DNA of 62,833 nucleotides, from positions 1 to 62,833 of the IMG/VR virus record IMGVR_UViG_3300010413_000029; one strand, 5' to 3'. Position 1 is the first letter of the stretch; the number at the start of each line of letters is the position of its first letter. Below are positions 13,765-35,734 of this stretch, piece by piece. The DNA is from a virus. Its lineage: Duplodnaviria > Caudoviricetes. The notes below the pieces were generated by a model. That model worked only from the letters and a program-made list of their open reading frames with translations, made no database searches and was not told the DNA's origin. The position numbers and the translations under genes were made by a program.

Positions 13765-14586
13765 CTACTCCACATCTCCAAAACGATATGCCCAATAATA
13801 ATATCCGCCAGCAATGAAAACAATCACAATAATGTAGTAAACAACATTGAAAACTGTAATTGATCGCTCATAGTAAGCAATCGAAGCAGCAATCCCCTGC
13901 TCATAATAGATGTCTATTTTTTGGTGTGGATTGGCAGGATTTGAGATGCCTCCATTAAAAAATCTGACAAACATTGTCGCATAAAATTGAGATGGCAAGG
14001 TAAGATAATAGTATCGAAGGTCTCCCTCGCTTTCCCACCAATCACCATTTTGGTACAAATAACTACCTCGTATCCACCCAACATACGACTGGCTGACAGT
14101 GTTCTTATCCAAATGCACTTTATCCTGCCAAGATATGCCCAAAATCGAAGAAGGAAACTGCTCTCCAAGATACATAAACTGATCTGCTACAGTTTCATCA
14201 CGTCGATAAGTATCCCATGTGTAGTACACCTCAGTCCGATAGCTTTCGCAATGCCCATCTTTGTCATAGGAATTGCAAACTTGCCGTGTGTGCATTGTAT
14301 ATCTTTCTGTCACGCGTTGGACCAAACCATATGTGCCAGATAACTCTGGTACACCAACCGGAACAACCGCAGTAAGTTGCCCATATGATAAGACGTTGCC
14401 AACCTCGGTCTTATGAGCATACTGAAACATGGTTGTATCATCATCAACTTGCAATGCTGTCCTCATCTTCCCAAGTTCGTCATACATAGAATCGGTCAAA
14501 AATGGGTTGATGAATATCGCAAACGCAAGCGCCAGGATCACAACAACAACACTGATGAGGAATTCTTTCAGTGAAATGTTACCCAT
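13765..14586 (-). CDS. Membrane protein (N- and C-terminal TM), LemA-associated
   Basis: Hydrophobic termini; adjacent to the LemA gene. Confidence 0.7.
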   Translation of the reverse strand: MGNISLKEFLISVVVVILALAFAIFINPFLTDSMYDELGKMRTALQVDDDTTMFQYAHKTEVGNVLSYGQLTAVVPVGVPELSGTYGLVQRVTERYTMHTRQVCNSYDKDGHCESYRTEVYYTWDTYRRDETVADQFMYLGEQFPSSILGISWQDKVHLDKNTVSQSYVGWIRGSYLYQNGDWWESEGDLRYYYLTLPSQFYATMFVRFFNGGISNPANPHQKIDIYYEQGIAASIAYYERSITVFNVVYYIIVIVFIAGGYYYWAYRFGDVE

Positions 14587-14589
14587 CGC

Positions 14590-15138
14590 TCACTCCGAAA
14601 ATAACTCGTCAGGCAACGTTGTTTCACTTCTATCGAAGGAAAGATATTTATAGTCGATGACCTCATGTCCAGTTGTACGTAAAAACACTCTGGCTGGGAA
14701 GCGCCTTACAAATCGTTTATAGTCGCGGACATCAGCATTGTAAGCATCACGATAGTTTGTAACCAAGTTCTCAGATAAGCTCATCTCAGTCATTAGCTGG
14801 ATATAGGTTTCGTTGGCTTTCAAGTCTGGATATGATTCCGCAACTGCATTCAAATAAAACTGTGCTTGCTGATCGTTTCCAGAATCAACGGCTGACCGTA
14901 ACTGTGCGATGGATGTCTGAACACCAGACTCGTATCTGCTAGCCTGCTCTACAACCTGGACAAGCTGCAAAATGAGATCATGCTGCCTTTTCTCCTGCAC
15001 AGTGATACCAGCTTTCGATTGGCTGATTCTTTCCTCCAAGCCAATTGCATGGTTTTCTACAGCAATTACCCATACAGCCATCAACACTGCGATAGAAATT
15101 GCAATTCCAATCAAGATTTTGTTGGTAGAAATATTCAT
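14590..15138 (-). CDS. lemA: LemA family protein
   Basis: N-terminal TM; KRQHDLILQLV, AVAESYPDLKANE.Y..LM.E...EN....R..YN..V..Y...V..FP. Confidence 0.9.
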   Translation of the reverse strand: MNISTNKILIGIAISIAVLMAVWVIAVENHAIGLEERISQSKAGITVQEKRQHDLILQLVQVVEQASRYESGVQTSIAQLRSAVDSGNDQQAQFYLNAVAESYPDLKANETYIQLMTEMSLSENLVTNYRDAYNADVRDYKRFVRRFPARVFLRTTGHEVIDYKYLSFDRSETTLPDELFSE

Positions 15139-15204
15139 TTTTTATTCTCCTTAGAACAATTTGGTTATTAGAGTTGAGATCAAATCGCTAGTTGCCATAT
15201 ACAA

Positions 15205-15717
15205 TTACCTTACGATATTTCTCATCTTCTTGAGTTCATATACCCTATCAATAGCCCGTTTACATGCACCCAATAAGTCATCATCAAGAATCTTTTCCCA
15301 TGCCATCGTTGCGCTAATCCCCTGCTTCATCAAGGATGCTTGCAAACGCACCATGAACCCATCAGGATCGGAACGAACTACAAACGCAACCTCATCTCCA
15401 CTGGCATAATTTCCCTTGAGCAGAAGGTCATCATCGCGGAAGTCAAACGCATTGCGAATCATTTCGTTGACAGGTTCCTGTGAACCATATTTATCATTCA
15501 ATTGGTGAAGATAGTCAATGTCGATCATGACCACAAACTTATCCCCTGTCAATTTGCGGTGTTCTAGTTCTAACGCCTGCCTCGTCAACGTTCCATAATT
15601 TTTGTTGAAACGCAAATGTTCATTTTCAGCACGGAGACGTTCAATCTCCCGGATAGCATCGTCAATGGCATCAACATACGTTTCAGGGTCATTGAGCCTA
15701 TCAATAATATCAGTCAT
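15205..15717 (-). CDS. GGDEF-like (diguanylate cyclase-type) protein with N-terminal coiled coil
   Basis: YGTLTRQA, MIDIDYLHQLNDKYG, signature variant SGDEV. Confidence 0.7.
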   Translation of the reverse strand: MTDIIDRLNDPETYVDAIDDAIREIERLRAENEHLRFNKNYGTLTRQALELEHRKLTGDKFVVMIDIDYLHQLNDKYGSQEPVNEMIRNAFDFRDDDLLLKGNYASGDEVAFVVRSDPDGFMVRLQASLMKQGISATMAWEKILDDDLLGACKRAIDRVYELKKMRNIVR

Positions 15718-15729
15718 TAGGGAATACTC

Positions 15730-15972
15730 CTACACTAAACGAATCCACGCAAGATTGATCTGAACAAACAATAAACAAATGTCAACGGAAATGAACCCAT
15801 CTTTTACAACATGACCCAAATGGAGCCAATGGTATCCTTTGAAACCATCCAAATCCTCAGTATAGTAAAGCTCATTGGAAAAACCAATGGAAAAGACAAA
15901 TTTGCCAAACAAGATAAACTGAAATCGAATTTCGTCAGGTTCTCGAATGATTTTCATCACATCACCACACAT
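15730..15972 (-). CDS. Hypothetical protein
   Basis: ORF in a tightly packed operon. Confidence 0.45.
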   Translation of the reverse strand: MCGDVMKIIREPDEIRFQFILFGKFVFSIGFSNELYYTEDLDGFKGYHWLHLGHVVKDGFISVDICLLFVQINLAWIRLV

Positions 15973-16240
15973 GCAGCACTTTGGCTATATCGAGATTCTT
16001 GATGTCATCCAACTCTTTCTGGAAGTCATCATCATGTTGACGGGTCACTTTCCCATTTCCAAACGTGACCAACTTGTAGCATTTTGGACAACGCAAGATG
16101 TCAACAGAGTAAATTCGATAAGGCACACCATTCCAAGCAGTCAACTCCACAATGGTTATGCCAATTTCATGAACATACATCACTCGCTGACAATCAACAC
16201 AAATCGGGGGCATGGTTATTTCAGTCATCATTCCCTCCAA
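15962..16240 (-). CDS. Hypothetical Zn-ribbon protein
   Basis: CVDC...CPKC. Confidence 0.55.
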   Translation of the reverse strand: MEGMMTEITMPPICVDCQRVMYVHEIGITIVELTAWNGVPYRIYSVDILRCPKCYKLVTFGNGKVTRQHDDDFQKELDDIKNLDIAKVLHVW

Positions 16241-16524
16241 ACAAATTCAAACTCAAACTGTTGCGCATCTTGATATTCACGCTTCATCAAGAACAATGAC
16301 TTGAATTCCTGATGACTTCTTACTGCTTTCTCCTCGTCAGTGACCTCAAGCAGAATTGCCAACGCAGACTGAGCAGGGCCAGAGCCACCATAACCAGCAT
16401 TGAATCCATCTGGACTATGATTCCAAGCCTTTTGGCTCTTGGAAGGGTCAAGCTCTTTCCCATCCAAGAATAACTTCAACTTTCCATTTTTGCGAATACC
16501 AACTACTTGATGTTTTGTTTCCAT
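16228..16524 (-). CDS. DUF6166-like protein
   Basis: NHSPDGFNAGYGGSGPAQSALAILL motif. Confidence 0.7.
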   Translation of the reverse strand: METKHQVVGIRKNGKLKLFLDGKELDPSKSQKAWNHSPDGFNAGYGGSGPAQSALAILLEVTDEEKAVRSHQEFKSLFLMKREYQDAQQFEFEFVWRE

Positions 16525-16745
16525 CACTCCACGAATACCTTTCTCAAGTCCTTCGCTTGAAACGTCCAATATTCTACATAGGTATTGAAACTTGCATCAC
16601 CATCCCCTTCAAAGCACACAGCCATTGGGCGATCTAAGAGATACACACCATACTTGCGAATGTGCTTCTCAATGACTGCCAAACCTTCGCAGCGTCGAAC
16701 ACGAACAATATCACCTTTTGTTAACTTCTGCTTTTTTGCCATCAA
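16524..16745 (-). CDS. Small hypothetical protein (SH3/KOW-like)
   Basis: KGDIVRV; AGGAGA RBS. Confidence 0.55.
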   Translation of the reverse strand: MMAKKQKLTKGDIVRVRRCEGLAVIEKHIRKYGVYLLDRPMAVCFEGDGDASFNTYVEYWTFQAKDLRKVFVE

Positions 16746-16768
16746 ATTCTCCTACTTTCTTTCAGGGT

Positions 16769-16853
16769 TGGATGCACCCTCATTCTAATGTATCAGTCCC
16801 CAGATGTCAAGGGAGTTACAGGTTGATTTTTATCCCGTAATTATAGCGCGGGA
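16769..16853 (-). promoter_or_regulatory. Conserved phage promoter module with upstream 28-bp hairpin repeat
   Basis: TTGACA(16810-16805)-17-TAGAAT, leader CATCCA; 16826-16853 is 26/28 identical to 35063-35090. Confidence 0.8.
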
Positions 16854-17294
16854 CCTTCCTTCATCCCTGAAATCAATCCGAGTCCGACACTGAGCACACG
16901 GGAACAAGCGATTGATCTCAAAGTTCATCCGTCCCTCATAACCGCATTTTGGGCAATGATACTCATCACTCCCCTGCCTGGCTTCCATCCAGATTTTTGC
17001 AATTGTGAACTTGGCACGCTGGATGACACCCCGATTAGCAAAACGCTGCTCACGATCAAGGTAGGATTGGGCATTGATGAAATGCAATCTCAACACAAGG
17101 TTGTCATGAATGTTATTGACAGCCTGACAGGTTTCCATGCTTTTCTCCAATCCATTCCGAGCCTTGAAGATGATGTCATCATACTCAGCCAGAACACCAG
17201 CATCCATCCCCTGGGGATATTGGACTTTGTAGCTCTTGCCGTCAACAATCACAGTCTTGGGAAAGTTCTCAATAATTTGCTGGGATGCGTTCAT
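16830..17294 (-). CDS. Hypothetical protein with C-terminal Zn ribbon
   Basis: CPKCG...CAQC. Confidence 0.6.
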   Translation of the reverse strand: MNASQQIIENFPKTVIVDGKSYKVQYPQGMDAGVLAEYDDIIFKARNGLEKSMETCQAVNNIHDNLVLRLHFINAQSYLDREQRFANRGVIQRAKFTIAKIWMEARQGSDEYHCPKCGYEGRMNFEINRLFPCAQCRTRIDFRDEGRSRAIITG

Positions 17295-17485
17295 GTGTTA
17301 TCTCCAATATAGAATTCCTTCGTCATCTTGTCTCGTTCCGTTTCCACTGGGGTGACTGGAACCAAACCAGTTCCCTTGCAGGTGGGACATGGGCGTGGGG
17401 TAGGTTGATTATCGATAACCTCCCACACATAGCCAGGATTGCCAATACAATCAGGGCAAGGGCGATAGTCTTTATCATCAGTCAT
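17291..17485 (-). CDS. Small DnaJ-type Cys-rich zinc finger protein
   Basis: CPDCIG...CPTCKGTG; GGAG RBS. Confidence 0.6.
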   Translation of the reverse strand: MTDDKDYRPCPDCIGNPGYVWEVIDNQPTPRPCPTCKGTGLVPVTPVETERDKMTKEFYIGDNT

Positions 17486-17486
17486 T

Positions 17487-17915
17487 TTAGATGTCTCCAT
17501 TCCAATAGGCTTCCACCTTTGTATAGTTAGCCCGATCTGACCGAGCAGGATGTTGCCATTTTTCATGGACAGCACGCAGCTTTTCCAATTCATCCGGTTG
17601 TCCAACCCAATACGACTTGTGCAACCTGCGAAGCATGACAAGCTCATCATGATCACAATAGTATTCCTCAGCCTGCTCATACAAGGCCAGAATATTGCGC
17701 AAAATGCGTTCATACTTCTTGGTGTCAGACCAACGATACTTGGAGTACAAGTCATCCCAAAAAGGTTGGAAGTCATCGCCCATATAGGCCTTTAAACTGT
17801 TCAGGACATCATCGCGAGAGGAAGTAAAGTCCAACTTATCAAACTGTCGATAAGCACCCCCACGAAAGTTGCCATTATTGATACCAACTGCTGATTTCTT
17901 TGCCATCACACACAT
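17487..17915 (-). CDS. Hypothetical protein
   Basis: ORF in operon with AGGAG RBS. Confidence 0.6.
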   Translation of the reverse strand: MCVMAKKSAVGINNGNFRGGAYRQFDKLDFTSSRDDVLNSLKAYMGDDFQPFWDDLYSKYRWSDTKKYERILRNILALYEQAEEYYCDHDELVMLRRLHKSYWVGQPDELEKLRAVHEKWQHPARSDRANYTKVEAYWNGDI

Positions 17916-17918
17916 CTC

Positions 17919-18860
17919 CTACAAATACACGGTCAAGTCACGATCAACCGCGCACATGTCCAGAATATCCACCCGATTGTTATCGGGGACAACAAAAGAA
18001 TAGTAGTTCTCTCCCCCACTCATGGCATAGGCATTGAGAACCTGCAAGCGATTGTCCAGCCTACGCTTCTCAGAGTAACGGGTCACGCACCAACCCACAT
18101 CCAAGATGTGCATTAGGATGTCCACATGTTTTGCAATCTCATCCTGTAACGCAAACGGGAGCATCACAAAATCAGGCTCATCCACATTGGGAACAGTCTC
18201 ACGCGGGACGGGATTGACTTTGCCGTTATTGGGAAGGATCACAGGAATTTCAAACGAGCCATTTGCAAAGCGCGTTTTCTTCCACCAGGAGCGAGAGTCT
18301 TCATCCTTTCCCATGGGCTGGAAGATGGACTGCTTGCCCATCCTTGTCTGGATGTTGGAGCCACCACAGTGAGTACACATCATTGGCATGGATTCCACTT
18401 CGACCTCATAGGATTCTGCTTCATCCAAACAAGTAATGACATACGTGCCTTTTTCGTCCAACTTTTTGGGACCACGCTTGCTAACAGTCTTGCGTAGCTT
18501 CTCAAACTGTGCCTTGTCCTTCTCATCCATCGTGAAGTCTTCCACAACCATATTGGCGATCTGGACAATCTTAGCGCCTTCATCCCTGGCCCACATCGCA
18601 ATATCACGGGCAAGGGTCATGGAGGACACGACAATCGCGCCCTCCTGCAAGATCACACCACGATGGTTGTCAGACTTCCATCGTCCGCGCTGGTTGGCAC
18701 GCCATTCCAACAGGGACATCTCCCCATCATCCGTTGGACGACGAGAATAGAGGCCGTAGTCATGGAGCCGATTGTAGAAAGTGGAGGAGGGCTTGCGCCC
18801 ATTCCACTCTACAAGTACAAGGATTGCCGAGGTGGGATTGGAGTCAATGGGGTCAGTCAT
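17919..18860 (-). CDS. Hypothetical protein with central Zn ribbon
   Basis: 313 aa; CLDE...CTHCGG. Confidence 0.65.
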   Translation of the reverse strand: MTDPIDSNPTSAILVLVEWNGRKPSSTFYNRLHDYGLYSRRPTDDGEMSLLEWRANQRGRWKSDNHRGVILQEGAIVVSSMTLARDIAMWARDEGAKIVQIANMVVEDFTMDEKDKAQFEKLRKTVSKRGPKKLDEKGTYVITCLDEAESYEVEVESMPMMCTHCGGSNIQTRMGKQSIFQPMGKDEDSRSWWKKTRFANGSFEIPVILPNNGKVNPVPRETVPNVDEPDFVMLPFALQDEIAKHVDILMHILDVGWCVTRYSEKRRLDNRLQVLNAYAMSGGENYYSFVVPDNNRVDILDMCAVDRDLTVYL

Positions 18861-19186
18861 GATTGCACAACACCATCAATAACATCATTTCCAATTCTAG
18901 GCAATGTACGTATCTGAGCCAGAATAGAAATCACTTCATTGGCATCTAACCATCCAAGAACATCATCGGTGATTGGTGTACTATAAGTAATATCCCAATC
19001 ATCCCCGTCAAATTGGATAACTGCCAATTCAAAACGATTATCTTTGGAACCATAGGTTCCAAAGCCACGAATTACGGAAGCACCAAAGTCATTCTCAAAA
19101 AGAAAAACCAACTGTTGATTAAATGGATGCTCACCATCAGAAACCAAATATTGCGCAAAATCCTGTAACTCAATCTGATTGCTCAT
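18857..19186 (-). CDS. Conserved phage hypothetical protein
   Basis: FENDFGASVI..FGTYG....FELAVI...TPITDDVLGWL, a motif recurring in phage proteins. Confidence 0.7.
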   Translation of the reverse strand: MSNQIELQDFAQYLVSDGEHPFNQQLVFLFENDFGASVIRGFGTYGSKDNRFELAVIQFDGDDWDITYSTPITDDVLGWLDANEVISILAQIRTLPRIGNDVIDGVVQS

Positions 19187-19192
19187 CTTGTT

Positions 19193-19284
19193 CTCCTAGG
19201 TCGGGGTGAATGTTGGATGAGTACCCGACATAGCTAATTCTAGTATATAACGCCCCAGTTGTCAAGGGTTATTTGGGATGTTTC
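19193..19284 (-). promoter_or_regulatory. Conserved phage promoter module
   Basis: TTGACA(19265-19260)-17-TAGAAT; TCATCCA in the loop of GTCGGG..CCCGAC; AGGAGA. Confidence 0.8.
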
Positions 19285-19322
19285 CCAAATATTCATGTCC
19301 GATAAAACAACCCTTCATTTCT

Positions 19323-19541
19323 CTATATTTCATGACTTATTATATTTCCATCATAATCAACATAATGAACCCTGTCATCAAGATTGTCGGCAAGCTCACA
19401 AAGTTCATCATCGTCAAGCAAATCTAAATCCTCAGGATAATCAATAATAATATCTTCAACAAGATATTCAGTACCAATCCATCTTTTTGTTGGATTGGTA
19501 CTGAATTGTGAAGTTTCAATCTCAATAGTTCGTCTCATCAC
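19323..19541 (-). CDS. Small acidic hypothetical protein
   Basis: ORF following the VWA gene. Confidence 0.5.
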   Translation of the reverse strand: MMRRTIEIETSQFSTNPTKRWIGTEYLVEDIIIDYPEDLDLLDDDELCELADNLDDRVHYVDYDGNIISHEI

Positions 19542-19547
19542 ATCCTC

Positions 19548-21308
19548 CTAGCACCAAATCAACTTGCTCAGGGTTTCAGAGACGTTATCTAAGCCGGTGA
19601 AGTTCAGGATTTCATCTGCAACTTCGATAATGTCATTCATCGGATCAGCATTGATCATCAACACAAAGATGCGCATCCCATAGTCTTCCTTCATCTGTTC
19701 AAGTCTATCTTTCACATCACTACTAATGCCAGCCTCGCCATCTGTGATCATCACGAAGTCAGACTTGAAGCGTTCCTCTTCATCCAGGTTATCCACCAAG
19801 TCCATCATCATCGTGAAGGCATAGTCAAAGCTCGTCCCGCCCCCATAGTAGAACATTGCCCAATGGAGCAGGTCAGCCAACGAGGTGCGAGTATCCACGA
19901 TGTCAGTCACTTCACCATGGGAGCCAAAGCCAGCCAGCAAGAACTCCTGCCCATTTTCTCGGGCAGCCTTTGCCAAGCCAAGCGCAAGAGCCTTCGCAAT
20001 GGTCTCCCGCTTGCCACCCATTTCCTCCATATTCATCGAGCCAGATTCATCCACAAAGCAGATGAAGTTTCCTTCTCGCACAGCCTGCATGGTCTTGGTC
20101 ACGCCACCCAAACCACGTTCCAGCCAATTCTCAATGGCCTGTTTCCGATAAGGGTAGTAATGGGTCAACTTGAAGCGTTCCGCAGGGTGCATCGCCAGCA
20201 AATCCTTCGTAAATCCGGCAGTCTCCACAACTACTTCCACCGGGGCACGACCACGCAGGGTTTTCTCAGCAATCCCATGCACGCGTCCGATCATGGTCGT
20301 CAACCCACCAATGCCAGGGGATGACAAAGAGCGCATCAACTCCATGATCTCGTTCGGGTCCAGCATCAAACCCTTGCCTTCGTCCACACCCCAGGCAGCC
20401 AGGAAGGTCATGACCTCCTCGCCAAAGTCAGAGCCGGTCTTGATGGAGCCAGAACGACCAAAGCCGTTCATCGAGTTGCCCATCGCATCTTTGATCTGCT
20501 GGTTGGCTTCATCCCGAAGGGACTGTGCCTGCTCACGCAATTTGTCAGCCTGCTCCCGAAGTTCATCAGGGTTGGGGGGAGCAAAGTCTTCCTGCTCCCA
20601 TTCTCCATCACCCTGTCCATCTTCATCCCAGTCATCATAGGGATTCTCGTCCTCATCGCCAAATCCGCCACTGGAATCATTACCATCGTCGTTGTCAGCG
20701 TTCTCCTGCTCATTAGATGGGTCAGAGTATGGGTTGTCGCCTTCCCGTTCATCTCCTTCGTTCCCTGATTGATTCTCACCAGAGTCAGAGTCGTTTTCCT
20801 TCTGTTCGATGTCATCGGCCTGCTGTTCCATATCATCGGCCTGCTGTTCCATATCATCAGCACGCCGTTCCATCGCATCAGCCTGCCCAAGTCCATTCAT
20901 GCCACCAGCCACATCTGGCATATTCATCAACTGCTCCACCATGCCATAAGCCGAAGCAGCAGAACTTACCTTGTGGTTCACAAACGGCAACACATTGACT
21001 TTGTAGGTCGGGTCAGACAATACCCATTCCAGCAATCCACGCACAGCCTCCCGCCCTTCCGGACTGGCAGGTTTGAGATTGCTATTCGCAAGGTACATCG
21101 ACCAGTACAGGTCTCGTTGCAGGTCATCAATGGCAGAATTTCCAAAACTGGACAGCGGGACATTGAAACCGGTCACCTTTTGGCCTGGGGTCAAATCATG
21201 TTGTAAGGTGGGAGAGAGAACATCGATGAACTGCCCCTTGACCAGATAGCGAGGGCGATAACCTCGCCCTCGGTCATCATCACCATCATCAAGATAGTAT
21301 CTCGGCAT
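19548..21308 (-). CDS. VWA-domain protein (ViaA/CobT-like)
   Basis: MIDAS motif VDESGSM, GGGTSF, MITDGE; acidic linker with a 21-bp tandem repeat at 20812-20853. Confidence 0.85.
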   Translation of the reverse strand: MPRYYLDDGDDDRGRGYRPRYLVKGQFIDVLSPTLQHDLTPGQKVTGFNVPLSSFGNSAIDDLQRDLYWSMYLANSNLKPASPEGREAVRGLLEWVLSDPTYKVNVLPFVNHKVSSAASAYGMVEQLMNMPDVAGGMNGLGQADAMERRADDMEQQADDMEQQADDIEQKENDSDSGENQSGNEGDEREGDNPYSDPSNEQENADNDDGNDSSGGFGDEDENPYDDWDEDGQGDGEWEQEDFAPPNPDELREQADKLREQAQSLRDEANQQIKDAMGNSMNGFGRSGSIKTGSDFGEEVMTFLAAWGVDEGKGLMLDPNEIMELMRSLSSPGIGGLTTMIGRVHGIAEKTLRGRAPVEVVVETAGFTKDLLAMHPAERFKLTHYYPYRKQAIENWLERGLGGVTKTMQAVREGNFICFVDESGSMNMEEMGGKRETIAKALALGLAKAARENGQEFLLAGFGSHGEVTDIVDTRTSLADLLHWAMFYYGGGTSFDYAFTMMMDLVDNLDEEERFKSDFVMITDGEAGISSDVKDRLEQMKEDYGMRIFVLMINADPMNDIIEVADEILNFTGLDNVSETLSKLIWC

Positions 21309-22477
21309 CAGATTTTCTCCCCACGCAATAGCTTTTTGTACACACTGAACATCTCGCGCAAGGCTTCATCCACTCGAGGGTTTCCAGGATGTTCAGCACG
21401 CAAGGTCTTCTCTGCATCCTGCCACGCACGTCCCAACTCACGGGAAAGAGCATCACGAGCATCTTCATTCAAGCGCCCACGATTGTCACTGTACTTGGCA
21501 ACAATGTTCGTCCAGGCCGCATAGGCATTGGCCTTGAACTCGTTGATCTGAGTTTCAACCACATCCACCAGGGCATAGACAATTTTCTTCCATTGTAATG
21601 CCTGACCAAAATCAACTATAGGGTAGCCGTAAGCCAGCGCATCAAAGGCCTGGCGAGGCAAGTCTTCAAAGTCATCACTACCAGCATAGTACGCGCCCAT
21701 CGCATACAACATCGCCCGAAACTGGAAAATGCGGCGATTGTTCAAGCTAAATTTCCCACCCTGTTCATCACACAACCGCTGGATGTTCTCAAGCAGACCA
21801 ATGATAGCCTCCGAACACTTATAGTGGGAGGGGTCGTTCTCAATATAGGTCGTGACCAGTCCATTGACTTCCATCACAGTGTTGAAGTCAGGCAGGTCAA
21901 AGTTCCAGGTGCTAATGGCAGGCTTGGCAACCAACGCTCGAATATCAGGCTGGGAGGGTTGATACCAGATCGTGAACGAGAACCGATCACGCAAGGCTTC
22001 ATTGCGAGGGGTCGGGGTAAGCCAGTTGGCAGTTCCAACATAGATCGGGCGATGGAACTTGCTGATCGCATGCATCGCGTGCACTGCCGTGTCCATCCCT
22101 AGATCGCCAAAGCGAGAAACTTCATCCAGCAGACAACCACAGACTTCCTCTGCAACCGGAGTGCCTTTCGTAATCCAGTACGGGACGCCCTTTGACTCAG
22201 CCTCAGGGTCAATGGAGTAGATCGGGTTGGCATACCCAATGATGTCAGCAGGGAGCGTGGAAGGAACACACGGGAACAACATCGTGGCTTCCTCGCCAAA
22301 CACCTGCTTGAGCATGTAATACAAGATTTCTGTTTTGCCGTTTCCGGGCTCACCAACAACCAGGACATTCTGCCAGGAAAGCATCGAAGCCTGCATTACG
22401 GGAGTAAGCAGGTTACGCAACTCATCAGGTTGGCTATATCCATTCACGGACAAAGTGGGTGCAACAGTATTCGTCAT
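21308..22477 (-). CDS. MoxR/RavA-family AAA+ ATPase
   Basis: GEPGNGKT, LLDEV, TAN, ALRDRF. Confidence 0.85.
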   Translation of the reverse strand: MTNTVAPTLSVNGYSQPDELRNLLTPVMQASMLSWQNVLVVGEPGNGKTEILYYMLKQVFGEEATMLFPCVPSTLPADIIGYANPIYSIDPEAESKGVPYWITKGTPVAEEVCGCLLDEVSRFGDLGMDTAVHAMHAISKFHRPIYVGTANWLTPTPRNEALRDRFSFTIWYQPSQPDIRALVAKPAISTWNFDLPDFNTVMEVNGLVTTYIENDPSHYKCSEAIIGLLENIQRLCDEQGGKFSLNNRRIFQFRAMLYAMGAYYAGSDDFEDLPRQAFDALAYGYPIVDFGQALQWKKIVYALVDVVETQINEFKANAYAAWTNIVAKYSDNRGRLNEDARDALSRELGRAWQDAEKTLRAEHPGNPRVDEALREMFSVYKKLLRGEKI

Positions 22478-22483
22478 TTCATT

Positions 22484-22579
22484 CTCCTAGTATAGTCTAC
22501 CCCATTGGGGCTGGATGATTCTTACTAGCTCATTCTAAAGGTTATCCCCTTATTTGTCAAGGGTTTGTAAGGATGAAAA
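22484..22579 (-). promoter_or_regulatory. Conserved phage promoter module
   Basis: TTTTCATCC, TTGACA(22560-22555)-17-TAGAAT, TCATCCA, AGGAGA. Confidence 0.8.
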
Positions 22580-22780
22580 TTAACCTTCTTCAGTGTTACT
22601 TAGGCCAACACTATCAGGAATTTTGGTCTGTTCAAAAGTCCACTTCATTAAATCCATAACTGTGGTTTTACTTGGGAGATTCCCGGTACATCCAATAAAA
22701 TCTGCAACAAGTTCATCAAGCATAGCATGAAGCTCAATATGCCTTTGTTTATGTTCTTCGTCATTCATAACTTCCTCCAA
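22580..22780 (-). CDS. Hypothetical protein
   Basis: Short ORF overlapping the upstream stop. Confidence 0.55.
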   Translation of the reverse strand: MEEVMNDEEHKQRHIELHAMLDELVADFIGCTGNLPSKTTVMDLMKWTFEQTKIPDSVGLSNTEEG

Positions 22781-24242
22781 AAATCTTGCTATTCATACTG
22801 ATCCCATCCCCAACATCAGACATATGCCCAAACAACTTTTCGATGCGTTCCACCTGCACTCGCAACTCAGCATCATTCGGTCTACTATCCAACTCATCCT
22901 TGTACTGTTGCAGGTCAAACACATCCCACGGCCACAAGGGTTGACCGGGGTTGTCATGCCCCTCCAGAAACAGGATACCTCGAATATTCAACGCCCAACT
23001 AAAACCAAGCGGCGGGTCTGGAAGTTCCAATCCATCAGGGGGGTCAAATGACAATCCAGAAATTCCACTATTCTTGGGAGACTTCCCACCAAATGGGATC
23101 TGTGCAAAACTTGAGTTCTGGACAGGAGCAGATGCAACCTGCTTATCAAACATAATCAAGCCATTGTCTGCTGCATAACTAAGCATGGCCACAATCCCAT
23201 TATTGGCATTGCCAGAGTTCTGCATATCCTTGAACACAGGTGAGGGGTCTTTGGTCAATGGGGACTGGTCAACAGGAATGGGAGCAAATATCTCATTGGG
23301 AGCATTCCAACCAGCCACGCTATCAAGCACCCCAAAGCCAACACACAAGTCAGGGGATACTTTCAAATTCACACTAACATCCACCTTGTTTCGCGCCAAT
23401 GCCTGCTGATACAAGGGCTGTCTTCCTTTCTGGATACCAGGGGCTTTCAACCATTGCCCATTAGCAGGGAACGGAATCTGTGCCCCTTTGAAGCTCACTC
23501 GCGCAGCCTTCCAATCCCCAACAAGGTCATCAGTTGTGAACACAACAGGAAAGTTCACAGCAGAATGAGCATTTTTCTTGTGGATCAGGGTGCAATAGCG
23601 TAACCCATCCAGAGCAAAGGCAAACACAACCGGGGAGTTCGGATAGTTGTGCTTGAGCGAGGCATATACCGTGATTTCACCAGGGACCAACGAGCCTTTG
23701 TGGTCAGGGTGGTCCATCATGGTAACATCCTTCTTACAAAACACCCAGTCGCCCTTGAGAGCAAAAGCGCCCTTCTGGAATGGGTCAATGCCAGTCAATT
23801 CCTTGCCCCAAGCGGTGAACCATCCTCCATATTTAGCGATCTCGGAACCATGAGTCGGGTCAATCTCAACCAGGCCAGCCTGCTCCACACTGGGCGGGAC
23901 AAACTGGTTGTCATTGCTATAATCAAAAGTCAAAACAAGTTCTATATCGTGTGGCATTTGTTCTCCTACTTTATCAGACATTTGAAAAACGTCCTGAAAC
24001 AAGGGGTCGGATGAACCCCATCGACCTAAAACCAATCGCTCATAATCAGTGGCTTGCCTCATCAAAGAGTACTTGATAGCATCCAAACTATCAGGGTCAA
24101 AAATAGTAGGACTATCACAATAAGTACTGGCAAAAATTGGTTCATCTGGATTGAGAACCATCTTGCGAAATGACTCCATAAGCTCAGAGTCATTACAAAG
24201 TTTCTCGTACTCATCAGGGCTAAGGGATGGGGTCACTGGCAA
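22761..24242 (-). CDS. Hypothetical protein
   Basis: 493-aa ORF; start uncertain. Confidence 0.65.
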   Translation of the reverse strand: MPVTPSLSPDEYEKLCNDSELMESFRKMVLNPDEPIFASTYCDSPTIFDPDSLDAIKYSLMRQATDYERLVLGRWGSSDPLFQDVFQMSDKVGEQMPHDIELVLTFDYSNDNQFVPPSVEQAGLVEIDPTHGSEIAKYGGWFTAWGKELTGIDPFQKGAFALKGDWVFCKKDVTMMDHPDHKGSLVPGEITVYASLKHNYPNSPVVFAFALDGLRYCTLIHKKNAHSAVNFPVVFTTDDLVGDWKAARVSFKGAQIPFPANGQWLKAPGIQKGRQPLYQQALARNKVDVSVNLKVSPDLCVGFGVLDSVAGWNAPNEIFAPIPVDQSPLTKDPSPVFKDMQNSGNANNGIVAMLSYAADNGLIMFDKQVASAPVQNSSFAQIPFGGKSPKNSGISGLSFDPPDGLELPDPPLGFSWALNIRGILFLEGHDNPGQPLWPWDVFDLQQYKDELDSRPNDAELRVQVERIEKLFGHMSDVGDGISMNSKIFGGSYE

Positions 24243-24291
24243 CTCCTGATAGTCACGCTATTCTCCAAAGCTACCAGCAACCCCATGTCAC

Positions 24292-24693
24292 CTAGAACGG
24301 TTCTCCATCATCCTCAGGTGGGGCATCCTCGACAGAACCACCATCACCACTGGAAGATAAGAAGCGAACCGTAGCAGCAACCACCTCAAAGGATGAGCGA
24401 GGGGAACCATCGGGGCCAGTCCAGACACGCGGACCTCCGGTGCCTTTATCAGCAGTCAAGCGTCCCTCTACCAAAACCTTCATGCCCTTCTTGACATACT
24501 GGTTGCAAGTTTCTGCCTGCTTGCCCCATGCAGAAATCCGAAACCAAGCAGTCTCCTGTACCTGATTGCCACCAGAATCAGTGTATTGACGATTGGTGGC
24601 AACAGAGAACGAAGCAACAGCAGCACCAGAGGGAGTGTAACGCATCTCTGCATCCTTGCCAACATTACCAACCACAACGATAGTGTGAAACAT
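24292..24693 (-). CDS. ssb: Single-stranded DNA-binding protein
   Basis: VGNVGKDAEMRYTPSG..VASFSVATNR, VLVEGRL, acidic PF tail. Confidence 0.95.
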   Translation of the reverse strand: MFHTIVVVGNVGKDAEMRYTPSGAAVASFSVATNRQYTDSGGNQVQETAWFRISAWGKQAETCNQYVKKGMKVLVEGRLTADKGTGGPRVWTGPDGSPRSSFEVVAATVRFLSSSGDGGSVEDAPPEDDGEPF

Positions 24694-25379
24694 TATCCAC
24701 CTACCTTTTCGTTGGCTTGCTTGATGAGGGCCTCTACTTCATGATAGCGCTTGAGTAGATCAGATCGAGTTGACTTGTTACGCTGGACAGGATTTACTTT
24801 TACCCCAATATCAGTGGCCTGTTTCACCAAAGCCTGCCACTTGCCCCAAGCTTCATCTGTGATGATGTCCATGTCAACCTTTGTGCCATCATTTGATTGG
24901 GGTTGATTCTTCCCAGTTCCAGCACGCTTTGTATCTTGAGGACTGGAAGTCTCATCGGGGTCATCACCGGTCAAGAGCAAGAAGGTTTCGAGCAAGGCAT
25001 ACTTCTTGCTAACTGTCATGCTCTTGTTTCCGGCCTTATCGCCAGGGTCTGCCCCATCCCCAAAAATTTCAACATCCTGATAGGTGTCACTGGGGACATG
25101 ATAAAAGCGATAAACGTGGGTGGCAACAATGCGATTCCAAACAGTGTGATATTGACCAACCTCAAAAGAAGAATGGGCAACATCCTTCACAGATACAGGA
25201 TACATCACCACACCATTCTCAAGCATGGCAGGGCGAAGGGCATCTAATACAGCATTTTCAGTCTTGAGACTATAGCTGATTTTAGAGTCCTTCGCCTTTT
25301 CCTTTTGCACATATCCAACAGACTGCATGATTGCCAAAATTGCAGTGTGGATATTCGAACTATCTTTCTTTTCAGTCAT
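24693..25379 (-). CDS. ERF-family single-strand annealing protein
   Basis: GDGADPGDKAGNKSMTVSKKYALL...GDDPD; adjacent to ssb. Confidence 0.8.
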   Translation of the reverse strand: MTEKKDSSNIHTAILAIMQSVGYVQKEKAKDSKISYSLKTENAVLDALRPAMLENGVVMYPVSVKDVAHSSFEVGQYHTVWNRIVATHVYRFYHVPSDTYQDVEIFGDGADPGDKAGNKSMTVSKKYALLETFLLLTGDDPDETSSPQDTKRAGTGKNQPQSNDGTKVDMDIITDEAWGKWQALVKQATDIGVKVNPVQRNKSTRSDLLKRYHEVEALIKQANEKVGG

Positions 25380-25428
25380 GGTATCTCCAATTCAGTTTGT
25401 GTACAGGTTTCTACAGGTCATACAAAGG

Positions 25429-25707
25429 TTACGATTCCAGGGCCTTGGATAGTTCCTCAGCCTTCTCAGCCTGATACATATCAAGGTGAGCAAACAAGAA
25501 ATTGCCAGCCTCTCTACAAGAGTAGCTCATATTCCCAACAATGTCATCACTCTTAGGTAGTGACCGTATGTGTCCAGTAAGACGGGCAAGTTTTTCAAAT
25601 CTATCAGCCATATCTTTTGGAACTTGAACGGTGAATGATACCATTGGCACAGGTTCAATTGAGGGTGCTTGCAGTTCAGCAATAGCTTGCTTTACTTCTT
25701 CTTTCAT
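25429..25707 (-). CDS. Hypothetical protein (possible RHH)
   Basis: FTVQVPKDMADRFEKLAR; has its own promoter. Confidence 0.5.
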   Translation of the reverse strand: MKEEVKQAIAELQAPSIEPVPMVSFTVQVPKDMADRFEKLARLTGHIRSLPKSDDIVGNMSYSCREAGNFLFAHLDMYQAEKAEELSKALES

Positions 25708-25744
25708 AGCTTTTCCTTTCTGGATTTCTCCTAATTTTTTGTAC

Positions 25745-25793
25745 TGGATGATTCACTTACAAGGATTATAAATTGTTAGTCCCTAGAAGTCAA
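25745..25793 (-). promoter_or_regulatory. Conserved phage promoter module
   Basis: TTGACT(25793-25788)-17-TATAAT, TCATCCA, AGGAGA. Confidence 0.8.
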
Positions 25794-25908
25794 GGAAGTT
25801 TGTGGGTATACATTCCTTTGTTTTTCTCGTTGATTTCAATAGCCATAACTATCCCGCGTGGCAATCCTAAAATGTAGATTCTCCATTGTCTTTTTATCCA
25901 AGCCCACA

Positions 25909-26697
25909 TCACCTACCTCCAATCACATTCCACATCATCGACAACGCATGAAACAACGCTTTGCCAATCTTGGGATTCTTCACAGCAATGCCCTGAATCA
26001 AGAGATTGATACTATGCAAAGCCTCCCGCAATTCTGCTTCATAGTCCACATCCACAGGATTGGGGTCGTCCACTTCCAAAGGTTCTACCTTGAGGGGAGC
26101 AAACTCAATCCCATTGCCAACCTGCACCCCAGTCTGGTACTGGACATAGCCATTGGACTCATGCACACTGTCAGGTTCAAAGGCTGATCTAAGTTGCCAC
26201 TCAGCAGCCGGATAGCCCTGATTTTGGGAAAGTTCCCAAGAATAGTCCAGAATGTCTTGCCAGATTTTATGACCAGTCTTGGGATTGTCAGCATCAAACT
26301 TGTTACGTCCGGCATAAGTGAAGTGGCTGAACGGAATGTCCAACCAGCGATAGCGTTTGCGTAGTGCTGGGGAGAACCGTCTGGCCGTCAACGCCCATGC
26401 CTTGACCGTGTTCTCGCTCCTGGCTCCACGCAGAAAGCGGCGCGAGACATAATAACAGATGTCCATGAACGTGTAAGGCTTGCCTTCCGAGTTACACAGC
26501 CCGGCAGCCAGTACAGCAGACCAGATGTCATTCGTCCAATCCCCTTTCTGCCATTGTACCCGTTCTTCTTCCTGAGATAAGGCCTCAAACCTCTGGATGG
26601 ATTCTTCTGGAAGGATTTTATCAATCGCGCGAATCATCTCTCCAACAGGGTTGGGAGAGCGCAGGTCAATTTGGAGGGAGGGGGTATCAATTAACAT
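25909..26697 (-). CDS. Hypothetical protein
   Basis: 262-aa ORF. Confidence 0.65.
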   Translation of the reverse strand: MLIDTPSLQIDLRSPNPVGEMIRAIDKILPEESIQRFEALSQEEERVQWQKGDWTNDIWSAVLAAGLCNSEGKPYTFMDICYYVSRRFLRGARSENTVKAWALTARRFSPALRKRYRWLDIPFSHFTYAGRNKFDADNPKTGHKIWQDILDYSWELSQNQGYPAAEWQLRSAFEPDSVHESNGYVQYQTGVQVGNGIEFAPLKVEPLEVDDPNPVDVDYEAELREALHSINLLIQGIAVKNPKIGKALFHALSMMWNVIGGR

Positions 26698-26905
26698 TGG
26701 TATCTACCAATATCCTAGTATCTTCTAAAGTTATCTTACAAGGGATATTTATCCCTCTTACACCAAGGTCAGTTTGAAAGAAGTAATCTTCACCATTATA
26801 TGAAAACTTTACCTCATATCCAGACCAAAGGCCATAATAAATCCCAACAGGTATTGGGCTAGCCTTATGGTATAAGACAGACTTATTCACAGTTTCAGCC
26901 ATCAC
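26687..26905 (-). CDS. Hypothetical protein
   Basis: Coupled ORF with GGAGG RBS. Confidence 0.55.
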   Translation of the reverse strand: MMAETVNKSVLYHKASPIPVGIYYGLWSGYEVKFSYNGEDYFFQTDLGVRGINIPCKITLEDTRILVDTNVN

Positions 26906-27741
26906 ACACCTCCAATCATAAGATTCACATAGTAGTCCAGTATCTGCATCACGCGCTTGCTATAGTGCGAGGGAGCCATGCCAATGTTGGGCATCAAGTA
27001 CAACTCCAACATCTGAGCAAAACAGCGATTGTCATAGGGGATGCTACTACGCATATCTTCCAATAAGTCATCAGCTTTACTGGCATCATCCCCAAGGATT
27101 CGCATGATGACATTGCTTCGTTTCTTCAAACCAACATCCATCGCATCATGCAACTCACCAATTTGCTCAGATAGGTCAGGGAACCACATCTGTTCTTCCA
27201 GATTTAGTTCCATCCAAACCTCTACCACACCAATCAAAAAAGTGGCATGTACCATCATGATGTCCGTATGACTTGCAAGCAAATACTTACAGGCATCAAA
27301 CAGCTGGTCAGGGGTGGATGTCATATAGGCATTGGCAATTTCAATCGGGACATCAGACAGATACAAGCCATTTCTAACTGCAAAGGGATGAGCAAGCAAA
27401 ACAGCAGCATCACTCATCTGCTCTCCCTGTAGCATTTCCAAAGAAAACACAGAAGGGTGCAAAGCAACCAATTTTTTATGATCACTTTCAACTTCCTGCT
27501 GGATGTAGCGCAGAGCAAGATTGATCGGGTCCTTAGAGTCCAACTGCGTCAATACAAAATGCTTTGCGCCAGGATATGCTTGCAATTTCCTTCCAAGCTC
27601 ACAGGCAACACGTAACAATAGGCGAGTATGAAAATCCCCCCACTGGCAATGAAGATAGTCATCAGCCAACTTGAAATTATCCAACTGCATGGTCTCAAGC
27701 AATGGCATCGCAGACAAAAGCACTTCGGTGTTATTGGTCAT
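26902..27741 (-). CDS. Hypothetical protein
   Basis: 279-aa ORF with AGGAGA RBS. Confidence 0.7.
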   Translation of the reverse strand: MTNNTEVLLSAMPLLETMQLDNFKLADDYLHCQWGDFHTRLLLRVACELGRKLQAYPGAKHFVLTQLDSKDPINLALRYIQQEVESDHKKLVALHPSVFSLEMLQGEQMSDAAVLLAHPFAVRNGLYLSDVPIEIANAYMTSTPDQLFDACKYLLASHTDIMMVHATFLIGVVEVWMELNLEEQMWFPDLSEQIGELHDAMDVGLKKRSNVIMRILGDDASKADDLLEDMRSSIPYDNRCFAQMLELYLMPNIGMAPSHYSKRVMQILDYYVNLMIGGV

Positions 27742-27758
27742 CTTATTTCTCCTATCTT

Positions 27759-27824
27759 TGGATGATTTACAACTCCATTATAATTTGTATGTCCCTAGTA
27801 GTCAAGGACTTCACTGGATAAAAA
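27759..27824 (-). promoter_or_regulatory. Conserved phage promoter module
   Basis: TTTTTATCC, TTGACT(27805-27800)-17-TATAAT, TCATCCA, AGGAGA. Confidence 0.8.
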
Positions 27825-34661: not shown

Positions 34662-34984
34662 GATACCTCTCTATTAGCAAGATTCAATTTGTTCAATTTT
34701 TCTCCAAAATCAATAAATTGTTCTGGATCACAAATATGGATATGACGCGGATTTCCATCACCAAAAGGGAACATCCCATCATGCCAAACAAAAATATCAA
34801 TACACCCACCAAATCTTGATTGTGCATCATGAGACTCCTCCCATCTTTTATCCATAACAGCAACGGCTTTTCCTGAATAGCCACCCATCTGTGGATACCA
34901 AATGGCATATCCAATCTTGTCATCAGATTCAAGCACTTTATCATTTGAGTCACACTGTTCAGAAGTTGGTTCTTGAATAGTCAA
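34658..34984 (-). CDS. Hypothetical protein
   Basis: TTG start 5 nt after AGGAGA, downstream of the promoter at 35047. Confidence 0.65.
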   Translation of the reverse strand: MTIQEPTSEQCDSNDKVLESDDKIGYAIWYPQMGGYSGKAVAVMDKRWEESHDAQSRFGGCIDIFVWHDGMFPFGDGNPRHIHICDPEQFIDFGEKLNKLNLANREVS

Positions 34985-34999
34985 TTTATTCTCCTTTAC

Positions 35000-35090
35000 T
35001 GGATGATTGTACACAAGTATATTAGTATAAACTCCCTTAGATGTCAAGACATTGGCAGGATAATTTTTATCCCGCAACTATAGCGCGGGA
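35000..35090 (-). promoter_or_regulatory. Conserved phage promoter module with upstream 28-bp hairpin repeat
   Basis: TTGACA(35047-35042)-17-TAATAT, TCATCCA, AGGAGA. Confidence 0.8.
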
Positions 35091-35103
35091 ACTTACCTTT
35101 TGT

Positions 35104-35224
35104 TAAATGCGATGCACCCGGGAGCAGACCGGGTGCATCATGCAGGGGAGGGTGTGGAGCAGGGAACTTGGCCGAGATTGGTTGTGTAATGCCACCTAGC
35201 ATTGCAAAGACAGTTTCAGTGGCA
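35104..35224 (-). ncRNA. Candidate small RNA 3
   Basis: TGATATACT extended -10 (35238-35230); 5' GCCAC..GUGGC stem; C-rich CUGCUCCACACCCUCCCC; 3' 11-bp hairpin 35111-35139. Confidence 0.5.
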
Positions 35225-35239
35225 AATCAAGTATATCAT

Positions 35240-35319
35240 AAAAAAACCCTATGCTTTGGATGGGCATAGGGTGGGGGACAAGATAGCGGGCTAGGACTAG
35301 TGTATCTCTAATGCTATCT
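35240..35319 (-). ncRNA. Candidate small RNA 2
   Basis: TGGTATAAT (35333-35325); AGAUAGC..GCUAUCU stem; UGUCCCCC linker; terminator ACCCUAUGC-CCAUCCAAA-GCAUAGGGU plus U-run. Confidence 0.6.
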
Positions 35320-35332
35320 AACTCATTATACC

Positions 35333-35453
35333 AAAAAAATGGCCTACTGGCTAGGAGAACGACCGTAACACTCGGAGAGTGCAAATAGGGTCATTTTTGT
35401 TCCAGTAGGCCCAAGTGAAACCTGTTTTCACAGTATGTCTCACTTGCATCCAT
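35333..35453 (-). ncRNA. Candidate small RNA 1
   Basis: TTGACT-17-TACAAT (35486-35458); 5' UGGAUG; GAAA-tetraloop hairpin; closing stem GGCCUACUGG/CCAGUAGGCC plus U7; unpaired UUCUCCUA. Confidence 0.65.
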
Positions 35454-35482
35454 TTGCATTGTAAAGGGGCAATCCTAAAAAG

Positions 35483-35734
35483 TCAAGCCTTCTCAAAATA
35501 GGCATCAATGGCATTGGCAATTTCGGTTGGCACTATTGCCCTACTCTCACCAAATTCCTTTTCAAGAAGCAAACCATCCTCAGTCAACCGATCAATAAAA
35601 TAACTGACAACACTGGTGCTAGTATTGAAATGATCAGAAATATCACGGATGACAGGGCTGCGCTTTTTCTGTTTCCAGAATAGCAAGATGTATTTTAAAT
35701 AGTCATACTTACGATCAGATTGTTTGGGTGGCAT
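35483..35734 (-). CDS. LexA-type winged-helix repressor (DNA-binding domain only)
   Basis: KYILLFWKQKKRSPVIRDISDHFNTSTSVVSYFIDRLTEDGLL...SRAI; TGTTAGAAT 9 nt before ATG. Confidence 0.75.
   Translation of the reverse strand: MPPKQSDRKYDYLKYILLFWKQKKRSPVIRDISDHFNTSTSVVSYFIDRLTEDGLLLEKEFGESRAIVPTEIANAIDAYFEKA

Follow-up and report, generated by a model that had tools for sequence, protein, structure and literature searches.

A candidate small RNA at a terminator junction of a tailed-phage genome, and the short words that it shares with a distant relative

What does a stretch of phage DNA that folds well and has no credible reading frame do between two sets of genes? The question is raised by the minus-strand region from 35486 to 35100 of the IMG/VR virus record IMGVR_UViG_3300010413_000029 (Caudoviricetes), which is flanked by a small winged-helix gene on one side and by a leftward gene array on the other. 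The window, that is, the whole stretch of DNA that was analysed, is this complete record of 62,833 bp, whose ends are direct terminal repeats. An original prediction, made from the sequence without database searches, had divided the region into three tandem promoter-structure-terminator units (RNA1, RNA2 and RNA3) and joined them in an RNA-based developmental switch, in which RNA1 represses the genes whose leaders carry the box CAUCCA and RNA2 acts as its sponge. Our analysis narrows this proposal to the first unit. RNA1 is a plausible translational repressor, and we give a rough probability of 0.45 to its being a conserved small RNA that blocks initiation through pairing of its CU-rich terminator patch with the ribosome-site word of the phage, with the 5′ UGGAUG as a second contact. 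RNA1 belongs to no Rfam family, and it appears to be the only one of the three units that is conserved in the distant relative G001.

Anatomy and fold of RNA1

The motifs quoted in the original prediction are present, and all features lie on the minus strand (Table 1), a strand that was assigned from the U-tracts because both strands of the region fold about equally well (z scores of −6.4 and −6.2). Unit 1 opens with the promoter match P1, and 5 nucleotides (nt) past its −10 box stands TGGATG, with which the candidate RNA would begin. A first hairpin follows, and then an intrinsic terminator (10-bp GC-rich stem and U7), the type of 3′ end by which a small RNA is defined. The fold of RNA1 (35452..35331) has a minimum free energy of −51 kcal/mol and a z score of −5.6, and none of 200 shuffled sequences was as stable. 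Within this fold, UGGAUG is unpaired with a probability of 0.98, and UCUCCUA with a probability of 0.16 at an opening cost of 1.1 kcal/mol; 6-mers with an unpaired probability above 0.5 make up just 5–7% in the RNA1s of both the window and G001. These values, together with the counts of the word TAGGAGAA given below, bear out the claim that sequences complementary to the leader box and to the ribosome site are accessible in RNA1.

As had been predicted, no credible open reading frame (ORF) was found in the region: the longest ORFs encode 62, 52 and 32 amino acids (aa), all lack a ribosome site, and relatives carry insertions or deletions of 1 nt and of 150–188 nt across them. A search of the whole window with Rfam gave 0 matches at the gathering score, and at E values up to 10 the interval 34900-35700 gave only two chance-level matches (E values of 1.3 and 5.7) to unrelated families. 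ARAGORN detected 0 tRNA or tmRNA genes, and a full-text literature search, which was not exhaustive and covered articles without their supplements, found no description of RNA1.

Leader words and the counterpart in a distant relative

The CAUCCA leader box proposed as the target proved to be real. It occurs in seven minus-strand leaders, where it begins at 2192, 16774, 19219, 22517, 25750, 27764 and 35005, and these leaders form one promoter family, ccTTGAC(A/T)-N17-TA(G/T)AAT, with near-consensus −35 and −10 boxes, a spacer that contains a GGGGA run, and an A/T-rich box upstream that resembles GGTTAATTTTCATCC. The boxes are situated 7–17 nt past the −10 box and 4–23 nt ahead of the ribosome-site word TAGGAGAA, within a leader motif of about 18 nt (TTGTAAgnnAAyCATCCAg). 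The folds of these leaders do not place CAUCCA consistently in a loop. Judging from the shared promoter, the seven leaders probably head one temporal gene class. The promoter family is common to both phages, with G001 members at 47140, 8161 and 4986, and the GGGGA/GGGA run lies 3–5 nt after the −35 box in both.

RNA1 complements two words that are common to the leaders of at least seven operons, with UGGAUG facing the CAUCCA box and (U)UCUCCUA facing the ribosome site UAGGAGAA. The word TAGGAGAA occurs 12 times in the window; 11 of these copies stand in translation leaders, and the one that remains is carried in antisense by RNA1, a match that is significant for a word of 8 nt. The octamer UUCUCCUA is complementary to UAGGAGAA over 8–10 nt in six of the seven leaders and over 7 nt in the seventh, and only 2 of 500 shuffles attained the summed antisense score that the window RNA1 has against these leaders. 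In cofolding, nt 1–6 of RNA1 paired with the box in six of the seven leaders, with free-energy changes of only −4.1 to −7.7 kcal/mol. When the whole of RNA1 was folded as a duplex with every leader, the long duplexes returned were meaningless, and this approach was dropped.

Because the RNA1 idea was formed on the window alone, G001 constitutes an independent test of it. This 48.9-kb phage record is syntenic with the window at 40–55% protein identity, and it was the sole close-enough relative obtained from alignment searches with the 102-aa gene and the helicase. Its RNA1 counterpart, 75 nt in length (15337..15263), is located downstream of the winged-helix gene and directly upstream of the homologue of the window gene 34353-34661. 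There, TGGATGC lies 6 nt past the −10 box and is followed by a hairpin and then by a terminator with an 11-bp stem (AGACCGCCCGA/UCGGGCGGUCU), the 7-nt loop CCUCCUA and the tail UCUUUUCCUC. UGGAUGC and CUCCUA are common to the two RNA1s, a comparison of two sequences and hence of low power. In hairpin 1, all seven of the pairs compared are kept between window and G001, and three of the seven have changed on both sides; in slid controls, 0 pairs had changed on both sides.

The words themselves are rare in G001 as well. On the coding strand of its 48.9 kb, CTCCTA occurs once, in the RNA1 loop, and TAGGAG occurs 12 times, 10 of them flagged as lying shortly ahead of a start codon; over both strands, TGGATG follows a −10-like box only three times. 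The combined RNA1 pattern, which leaves out the window RNA1 with its UCUCCU, had no other match in 305,730 nt of loci, both strands included. The G001 leaders at 47140 and 4986 carry CATCCA together with TAGGAGAA, the one at 8161 carries a variant, and two of the three precede genes homologous to those of the window. The independent test in G001 came out in favour of RNA1, with UGGAUGC and CUCCUA kept in the RNA and CATCCA and TAGGAGAA kept in the leaders. A close variant was also available in a contig from the public sequencing run X1, in which 35179 is joined to 35368 with 38 other letters between; among these, GUUCUCCUAGC is kept at 11 of 11 positions, while four of the 10 adjacent stem-arm positions differ, as do most upstream letters (both aligned by eye).

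Further relatives were sought by several routes. Distant blastn of 35000-35800 against INPHARED phages gave no match, and the runs X3 and X4 contained no contigs matching the window. The winged-helix protein, or the alignment of three sequences, led to no syntenic relative in viral contigs, and winged-helix queries led to one unrelated locus in metagenome contigs and one in genome contigs. Homologues of the 108-aa gene pointed to five loci, none of them syntenic upstream; an exact 17-mer scan of viral contigs returned six chance matches, and a 25-letter degenerate pattern returned 0.

What the analysis shows is the anatomy of RNA1, the rarity of the words and the fact that both patches are conserved; we infer, as the most likely mechanism, that RNA1 is transcribed, pairs with the leaders and represses them. 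It would be made from its own promoter P1, or be released by cleavage at the 3′ end of the early winged-helix operon, and in either case would end at its own intrinsic terminator, exposing two short single-stranded patches, the 5′ UGGAUG and the (U)UCUCCUA of the terminator. The latter would pair with the ribosome-binding site and keep the 30S subunit from binding, the 5′ patch would help through pairing with the box, and the translation of CAUCCA-class genes would be dampened or delayed.

Several observations weigh against this interpretation. Promoter-like matches are frequent by chance, with 11 found where 6.6 were expected in 3.5 kb, and the G001 promoter TTGAAT-17-TACTAT is weak (8 of 12 matches, by eye), so that the RNA may instead be cut from an upstream transcript. 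CATCCA/TGGATG has 109 copies over both strands of the window, most of them inside genes, and TGGATG is frequent on the minus strand, so that the copy in RNA1 carries little weight when the window is taken by itself. The octamer UUCUCCUA is partly paired, its 8 nt being unpaired together with a probability of 0.014. Since the leader motif is conserved over about 18 nt, a longer match would be expected of an antisense RNA than the 6 nt that pair with the box. The order of the patches in RNA1, anti-box at the 5′ side and anti-ribosome-site at the 3′ side, is the reverse of a colinear duplex, and two separate contacts would be needed. In G001, each complement spans only 6 nt, and the antisense score was not above that of shuffles (432 of 500 attained the maximum and 179 of 500 the sum). 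Likewise, the covariation in hairpin 1 was not significant in a shuffle control with two sequences only (67 of 500), and an unanchored local alignment of the 5′ parts of the window and G001 RNA1s was marginal (29 of 500 shuffles).

Table 1. Features of the studied region and of related leaders in the window.
Feature	Position	Strand	Basis or remark
83-aa winged-helix DNA-binding gene	35483..35734	-	ORF; stop codon overlaps the −35 box of P1
P1, sigma-70-type promoter match TTGACT-17-TACAAT	35458..35486	-	10 of 12 consensus matches (promoter scan)
RNA1, candidate small RNA, about 120 nt	35333..35452	-	Promoter match, fold, terminator, G001 counterpart
RNA1, 5′ single-stranded UGGAUG	35452-35447	-	Fold
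RNA1, hairpin 1, 14 bp	35446-35412	-	Fold
RNA1, terminator outer stem, 10 bp, GC-rich, GGCCUACUGG/CCAGUAGGCC	35411-35402 / 35350-35341	-	Encloses the inner hairpin
RNA1, UUCUCCUA, exact complement of the phage ribosome site UAGGAGAA	35352..35359	-	Inner loop of the RNA1 terminator
RNA1, U7 tract	35339-35333	-	After the terminator stem
P2, extended −10 box TGGTATAAT	35325..35333	-	TAGCCA-17-TATAAT with TG; begins inside the RNA1 U-tract
Strain-specific segment (unit 2 and first hairpin of unit 3)	35181..35331	-	Absent from the X1 variant and from X2
RNA2, about 80 nt	35240..35319	-	Fold
RNA2, hairpin, then unpaired UCCCCC linker	35319-35281	-	Fold
RNA2, terminator CCCUAUGC (loop CCAUCCAAA) GCAUAGGG, 8-9-bp stem	35272-35247	-	Followed by U7 at 35246-35240
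Unit 3	35100..35232	-	Weak −10 box and hairpins
Unit 3, weak −10 box TATGAT	35240-35235	-	By eye; overlaps the U-tract
Unit 3, first hairpin	35224-35190	-	Fold
Unit 3, C-rich single strand	35164-35141	-	CCCUCCCC at 35152-35145, unpaired with probability 0.95
Unit 3, 11-bp hairpin	35139-35111	-	Followed by GCAUUUAAC, no U-tract
Operator-like inverted repeat TCCCGC-N9-GCGGGA around TATAGT	35064..35092	-	TTAACA-18-TATAGT in promoter scan
CATCCA-class promoter nearest the region	34982..35047	-	TTGACA-17-TAATAT, box 35005-35000, AGGAGAA, TTG start 34984
Six other CATCCA-box leaders (besides 35005)	2187..27764	-	Positions of box and TAGGAGAA

Alternative explanations and the variable units 2 and 3

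Among the alternatives, the one that survives best, which we regard as somewhat unlikely, sees nothing but a transcriptional junction in this region. The terminators of units 1 and 2 (T1 and T2) would insulate the early winged-helix operon in tandem, promoters would restart transcription, the motifs would have no role in trans and the short RNAs would be by-products. T1 and T2 are good terminators, each followed by a promoter, and with 93 nt between them on the same strand they are terminators in series between transcription units; G001 likewise has a promoter directly after its terminator. The site after T1 varies (unit 2, another hairpin with U6, or nothing), as expected of interchangeable back-up terminators, and the chance frequency of promoter-like matches, the shortness of the motif matches and the G001 antisense score, all mentioned above, agree with this reading too. 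It leaves unexplained, however, why UGGAUGC and the unpaired CUCCUA survive while stems and proteins diverge (40–55% identity), and why the sole ribosome-site word outside the leaders in each genome is the antisense copy in RNA1. Were the region a terminator junction only, the finding would be an ordinary one.

The variation behind this alternative was seen in close variants from public sequencing runs. The X1 variant contig described above lacks the segment 35181-35331, and another X1 contig carries a different short hairpin with U6 directly after the RNA1 U-tract. The X2 relative, from another study, is about 90% identical to the window; one contig covers 35332-35666 and has a 19-letter loose end, 17 letters of which equal window 35164-35180 (matched by eye), and 35091-35165 is covered with three differences. 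The absence of 35181-35331 from X2 rests on these contig ends and this joint, with X2 lacking cover at 35210-35303. Being absent in two close variants, the segment is strain-specific, and the arrangement of three units is therefore a feature of the window strain only. Unit 2 appears to be a recent strain-specific insertion, which may act as a back-up terminator or encode an extra small RNA, and the site after T1 appears, from the contigs compared, to be a hot spot of exchangeable hairpin cassettes.

A distinctly unlikely explanation is that CATCCA/CAUCCA in the leaders is recognised by a phage protein factor, for instance the winged-helix protein or an RNA-binding translational regulator, and that the inverted site in RNA1 or its promoter serves autoregulation at the DNA level or makes the RNA a decoy that titrates the factor. 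Such a factor would account for a leader motif of about 18 nt of which only 6 are matched by RNA1; moreover, the promoter class shares further DNA motifs (the GGGGA run in the spacer and the upstream A/T-rich box), operator-like inverted repeats lie nearby and a gene for a small DNA-binding protein adjoins in both phages. Against this, the orientation of the box relative to transcription is constant in seven of seven window leaders and in both exact G001 boxes, and it is inverted in both RNA1s, which an RNA–RNA model requires and a DNA-site model does not. Furthermore, the distance of the box from the −10 box varies by 10 nt, and it would go unexplained why the terminator loop complements the ribosome site.

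Equally doubtful to us is an extended form of the RNA1 proposal, in which RNA1 would be a regulon-wide translational governor with a two-part address (CAUCCA and UAGGAGAA, in at least seven operons) kept along with the RNA itself across a deep lineage, and RNA2, with a leader-like CAUCCAAAG-AUAGG segment in its loop, a newly acquired decoy. If this were true, the phage would possess an RNA-only timing circuit that is rewired by the insertion or deletion of cassettes. The likelihood of the three-RNA switch as originally proposed, with RNA1 repressing the CAUCCA regulon, RNA2 as sponge or decoy for RNA1 and RNA3 as a further regulator at ribosome sites, is smaller still.

Unit 2 has the structure that had been ascribed to it. 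Its extended −10 box P2 stands directly after the preceding U-tract, as predicted, and is one of six copies of TGNTATAAT in the window, both strands counted. The RNA2 fold has a z score of −4.9, with 0 of 200 shuffles as stable; its UCCCCC linker is unpaired with a probability of 0.99, and the 9-nt terminator loop CCAUCCAAA (35263-35255) exposes CAUCCA, also with a probability of 0.99. In addition, the loop and 3′ arm (CATCCAAAGCATAGG) resemble the leader at 27764 at 14 of 15 positions, a likeness that three of 300 shuffles equalled and that a target mimic would be expected to have; it fits a copied leader fragment or a decoy. This likeness is the one hint in favour of the sponge. The antisense score of RNA2 against the leaders was not above that of shuffles (sum reached by 291 of 500), the match between RNA1 and RNA2 comprises 6 bp only, and no conservation of unit 2 was found, its comparison with G001 not rising above shuffles either (399 of 500).

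Unit 3 departs from the predicted layout. Its −10 box is only a weak TATGAT recognised by eye, the promoter scan listed no promoter for it, and its final hairpin lacks a U-tract, so that the description as a promoter-structure-terminator unit holds for units 1 and 2 and not for unit 3. The fold is less striking (z score of −1.7; eight of 200 shuffles as stable). The anti-Shine-Dalgarno-like motifs attributed to RNA3 are present, CUGCUCC twice and CCCUCCCC once, but the antisense score did not exceed that of shuffles (sum reached by 105 of 500). Unit 3 did not resemble the G001 leader (207 of 500 shuffles) or the region upstream of the G001 winged-helix gene (42 of 300) more than shuffles did, and most likely it serves the genes downstream as their 5′ leader and is not a separate RNA.

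The unpaired C-rich stretches of RNA2 and RNA3 are like the UCCC motifs of LhrC and its kin, as far as the available part of PMC4132741 describes them, and this speaks for the three-RNA switch. Since two close variants lack the segment 35181-35331 and neither unit 2 nor unit 3 has a G001 counterpart, the three tandem units are not a conserved design, and the developmental switch with its sponge is not supported. Finally, it is hardly credible that a leaderless or near-leaderless small protein begins at the AUG of UGGAUG and that this start codon explains the 5′ conservation: the AUG does lie 9–10 nt past the −10 box in both phages and opens ORFs of 32 aa (window 35449..35351) and 53 aa (G001 15334..15173), but the peptides differ in length and share only their first residues, the ORFs cross the terminator hairpins and in G001 the next promoter too, the X1 variant has a 1-nt deletion at 35398 inside the 32-aa ORF, whose 3′ part is replaced, and the changes in hairpin 1 are compensatory at the RNA level.

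Known systems and genomic surroundings

To our knowledge, small RNAs by which a phage controls genes of its own are known in few cases, and c4, sar and OOP each act on one gene or operon. The c4 RNA arises by processing of the leader that heads the operon it targets, and it possesses two loop sequences. Another well-known family, LhrC of Listeria monocytogenes, is encoded by copies some of which stand in tandem. According to the accessible portion of PMC4132741, LhrC exposes CU-rich motifs in a loop, on the single strand that links the hairpins and in the loop of the terminator, and these motifs pair with the Shine-Dalgarno region and block translation, and RsaE, RNAIII, SprD and FsrA are named as members of the same class of small RNAs that block ribosome sites through UCCC or CU-rich motifs. 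As far as LhrC is portrayed there, both are short RNAs with two stem-loops, RNA1 has its ribosome-site complement in an unpaired part of the terminator and RNA2 has UCCCCC between two hairpins, whereas LhrC is chromosomal and stress-induced and RNA1 is phage-encoded. Unlike LhrC, moreover, the window units are not copies of each other, RNA1 has a second, 5′-terminal motif, and the window RNAs have no sequence or Rfam similarity to LhrC. Of such motifs, RNA1 has one that is CU-rich (UCUCCUA), RNA2 has UCCCCC and RNA3 has CCCUCCCC, and they are not redundant copies within one RNA.

The c4 RNA of P1/P7 has loop sequences complementary to the ant mRNA around its ribosome site, as stated in the consulted section of the review PMC12197685. 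In the same section, c4 (immI) is a phage-encoded RNA of about 77 nt that acts in trans through short, probably loop-borne complements that block translation, and in these respects it resembles the RNA1 proposed here; it controls one operon (ant), however, whereas the target words of RNA1 stand in at least seven leaders. A loop complementary to the ribosome site of a phage mRNA, the hallmark of c4, was found in RNA1 (UUCUCCUA against UAGGAGAA), and the Rfam family of the C4 antisense RNA gave no match in the searches described above, either at the gathering score or at E values up to 10.

A third comparison concerns SdsR, RseX and ArrS of Escherichia coli, whose intrinsic-terminator loops drive the regulation of fepA in the available text of PMC11979758; SdsR acts there through both its 5′ part (on the translation initiation region) and its 3′ end. 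The likeness to RNA1, within what that text covers, is that an RNA's own terminator loop would be a functional element. The difference is that those loops act "likely without base-pairing" and on a structure far upstream in a long 5′ untranslated region (PMC11979758, same text). The loop motif of RNA1 is, by comparison, a direct complement of the ribosome site. RNA1 also recalls the pR'-tR' arrangement of lambdoid phages, the substrate of Q antitermination, in which a constitutive promoter gives a short, structured, terminated transcript at the head of a long operon. It differs in that a new promoter stands directly after the terminator in both phages, so that read-through would not be needed; no −10-like pause element was seen after P1, and the 72 scanned ORFs included none that was recognised as Q-like.

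If RNA1 does block the ribosome-site word of many operons, it would represent a simple way for a phage to set how strongly a whole class of its genes is translated. Another gain would be a signature for finding such RNAs in uncultured phages, namely a sole antisense copy of the phage's own ribosome-site word in a terminator loop.

The surrounding genome is that of a tailed phage. PHROG scans of the 72 ORFs recognised a terminase, a portal, structural proteins and an endolysin, together with a DnaB-like helicase, Erf, SSB, HNH nucleases and methyltransferases; an integrase was not among the functions recognised. Near 36,000 there are two strong divergent promoters, and the leftward one leads to a 71-aa gene followed by the 83-aa winged-helix gene. 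Beyond the studied region, the gene array extends over about 28 kb, nearly all of it on the minus strand.

The winged-helix protein had been called LexA-like, a name that is only loosely justified. Its Pfam matches are to HTH_27, HTH_24, Fe_dep_repress and MarR, all sub-threshold (E values of 0.001–0.007), which agrees with a winged helix; LexA_DNA_bind did not match the window protein in Pfam and was touched only by the G001 counterpart, under the cut-off (E value of 0.006). Besides itself, the protein has two homologues in a large protein database (P0002 and P0003, with 89% and 67% identity). Within this gene, at 35557-35566, a +1 insertion in the X2 relative is offset by a −1 deletion at a distance of 9 nt, a compensated frameshift that fits a gene under selection.

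The inverted repeat downstream of unit 3 has a second copy at 16819-16861, 86% identical over 44 nt, and the boxes of the two are TATAGT and TATAAT. Both copies are situated 45–80 nt upstream of a CATCCA-class promoter, and in the X2 relative one half-site is kept and the other altered. The repeat looks like an operator for a dimeric DNA-binding protein, which is possibly the neighbouring winged-helix protein.

The TTG start at 34984 opens a 108-aa gene (34658-34984, minus strand), whose homologues (51–58% identity) occur in five unrelated IMG/VR phages with no common neighbours and which is absent from G001. By this distribution, the gene behaves like a mobile 'moron' placed between the leader region and the conserved 102-aa gene. 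The leftward array is broken at 31182-32081 by a 299-aa ORF on the plus strand with PHROG matches to families of unknown function only; it is likely, from its sequence, an IS1595/ISXO2-type transposase, and the element an insertion sequence within the phage.

Noncoding stretches of related layout were observed elsewhere. In G001 (L018), a noncoding stretch of about 350 nt upstream of the winged-helix gene (16372-16016, minus strand) opens with a strong terminator, directly followed by a −10-like box and a perfect 10-bp hairpin; it shows no similarity to window units 2 or 3, and it may hold further small RNAs. In the window, a terminator (CCAUCCCCUAG/CUAGGGGAUGG with a U-rich tail) at about 41040-41000 on the minus strand is followed by the extended −10 box TGCTATAAT; its stem is formed by CAUCC and GGAUG, and the succession of terminator and promoter is the same as in the studied region.

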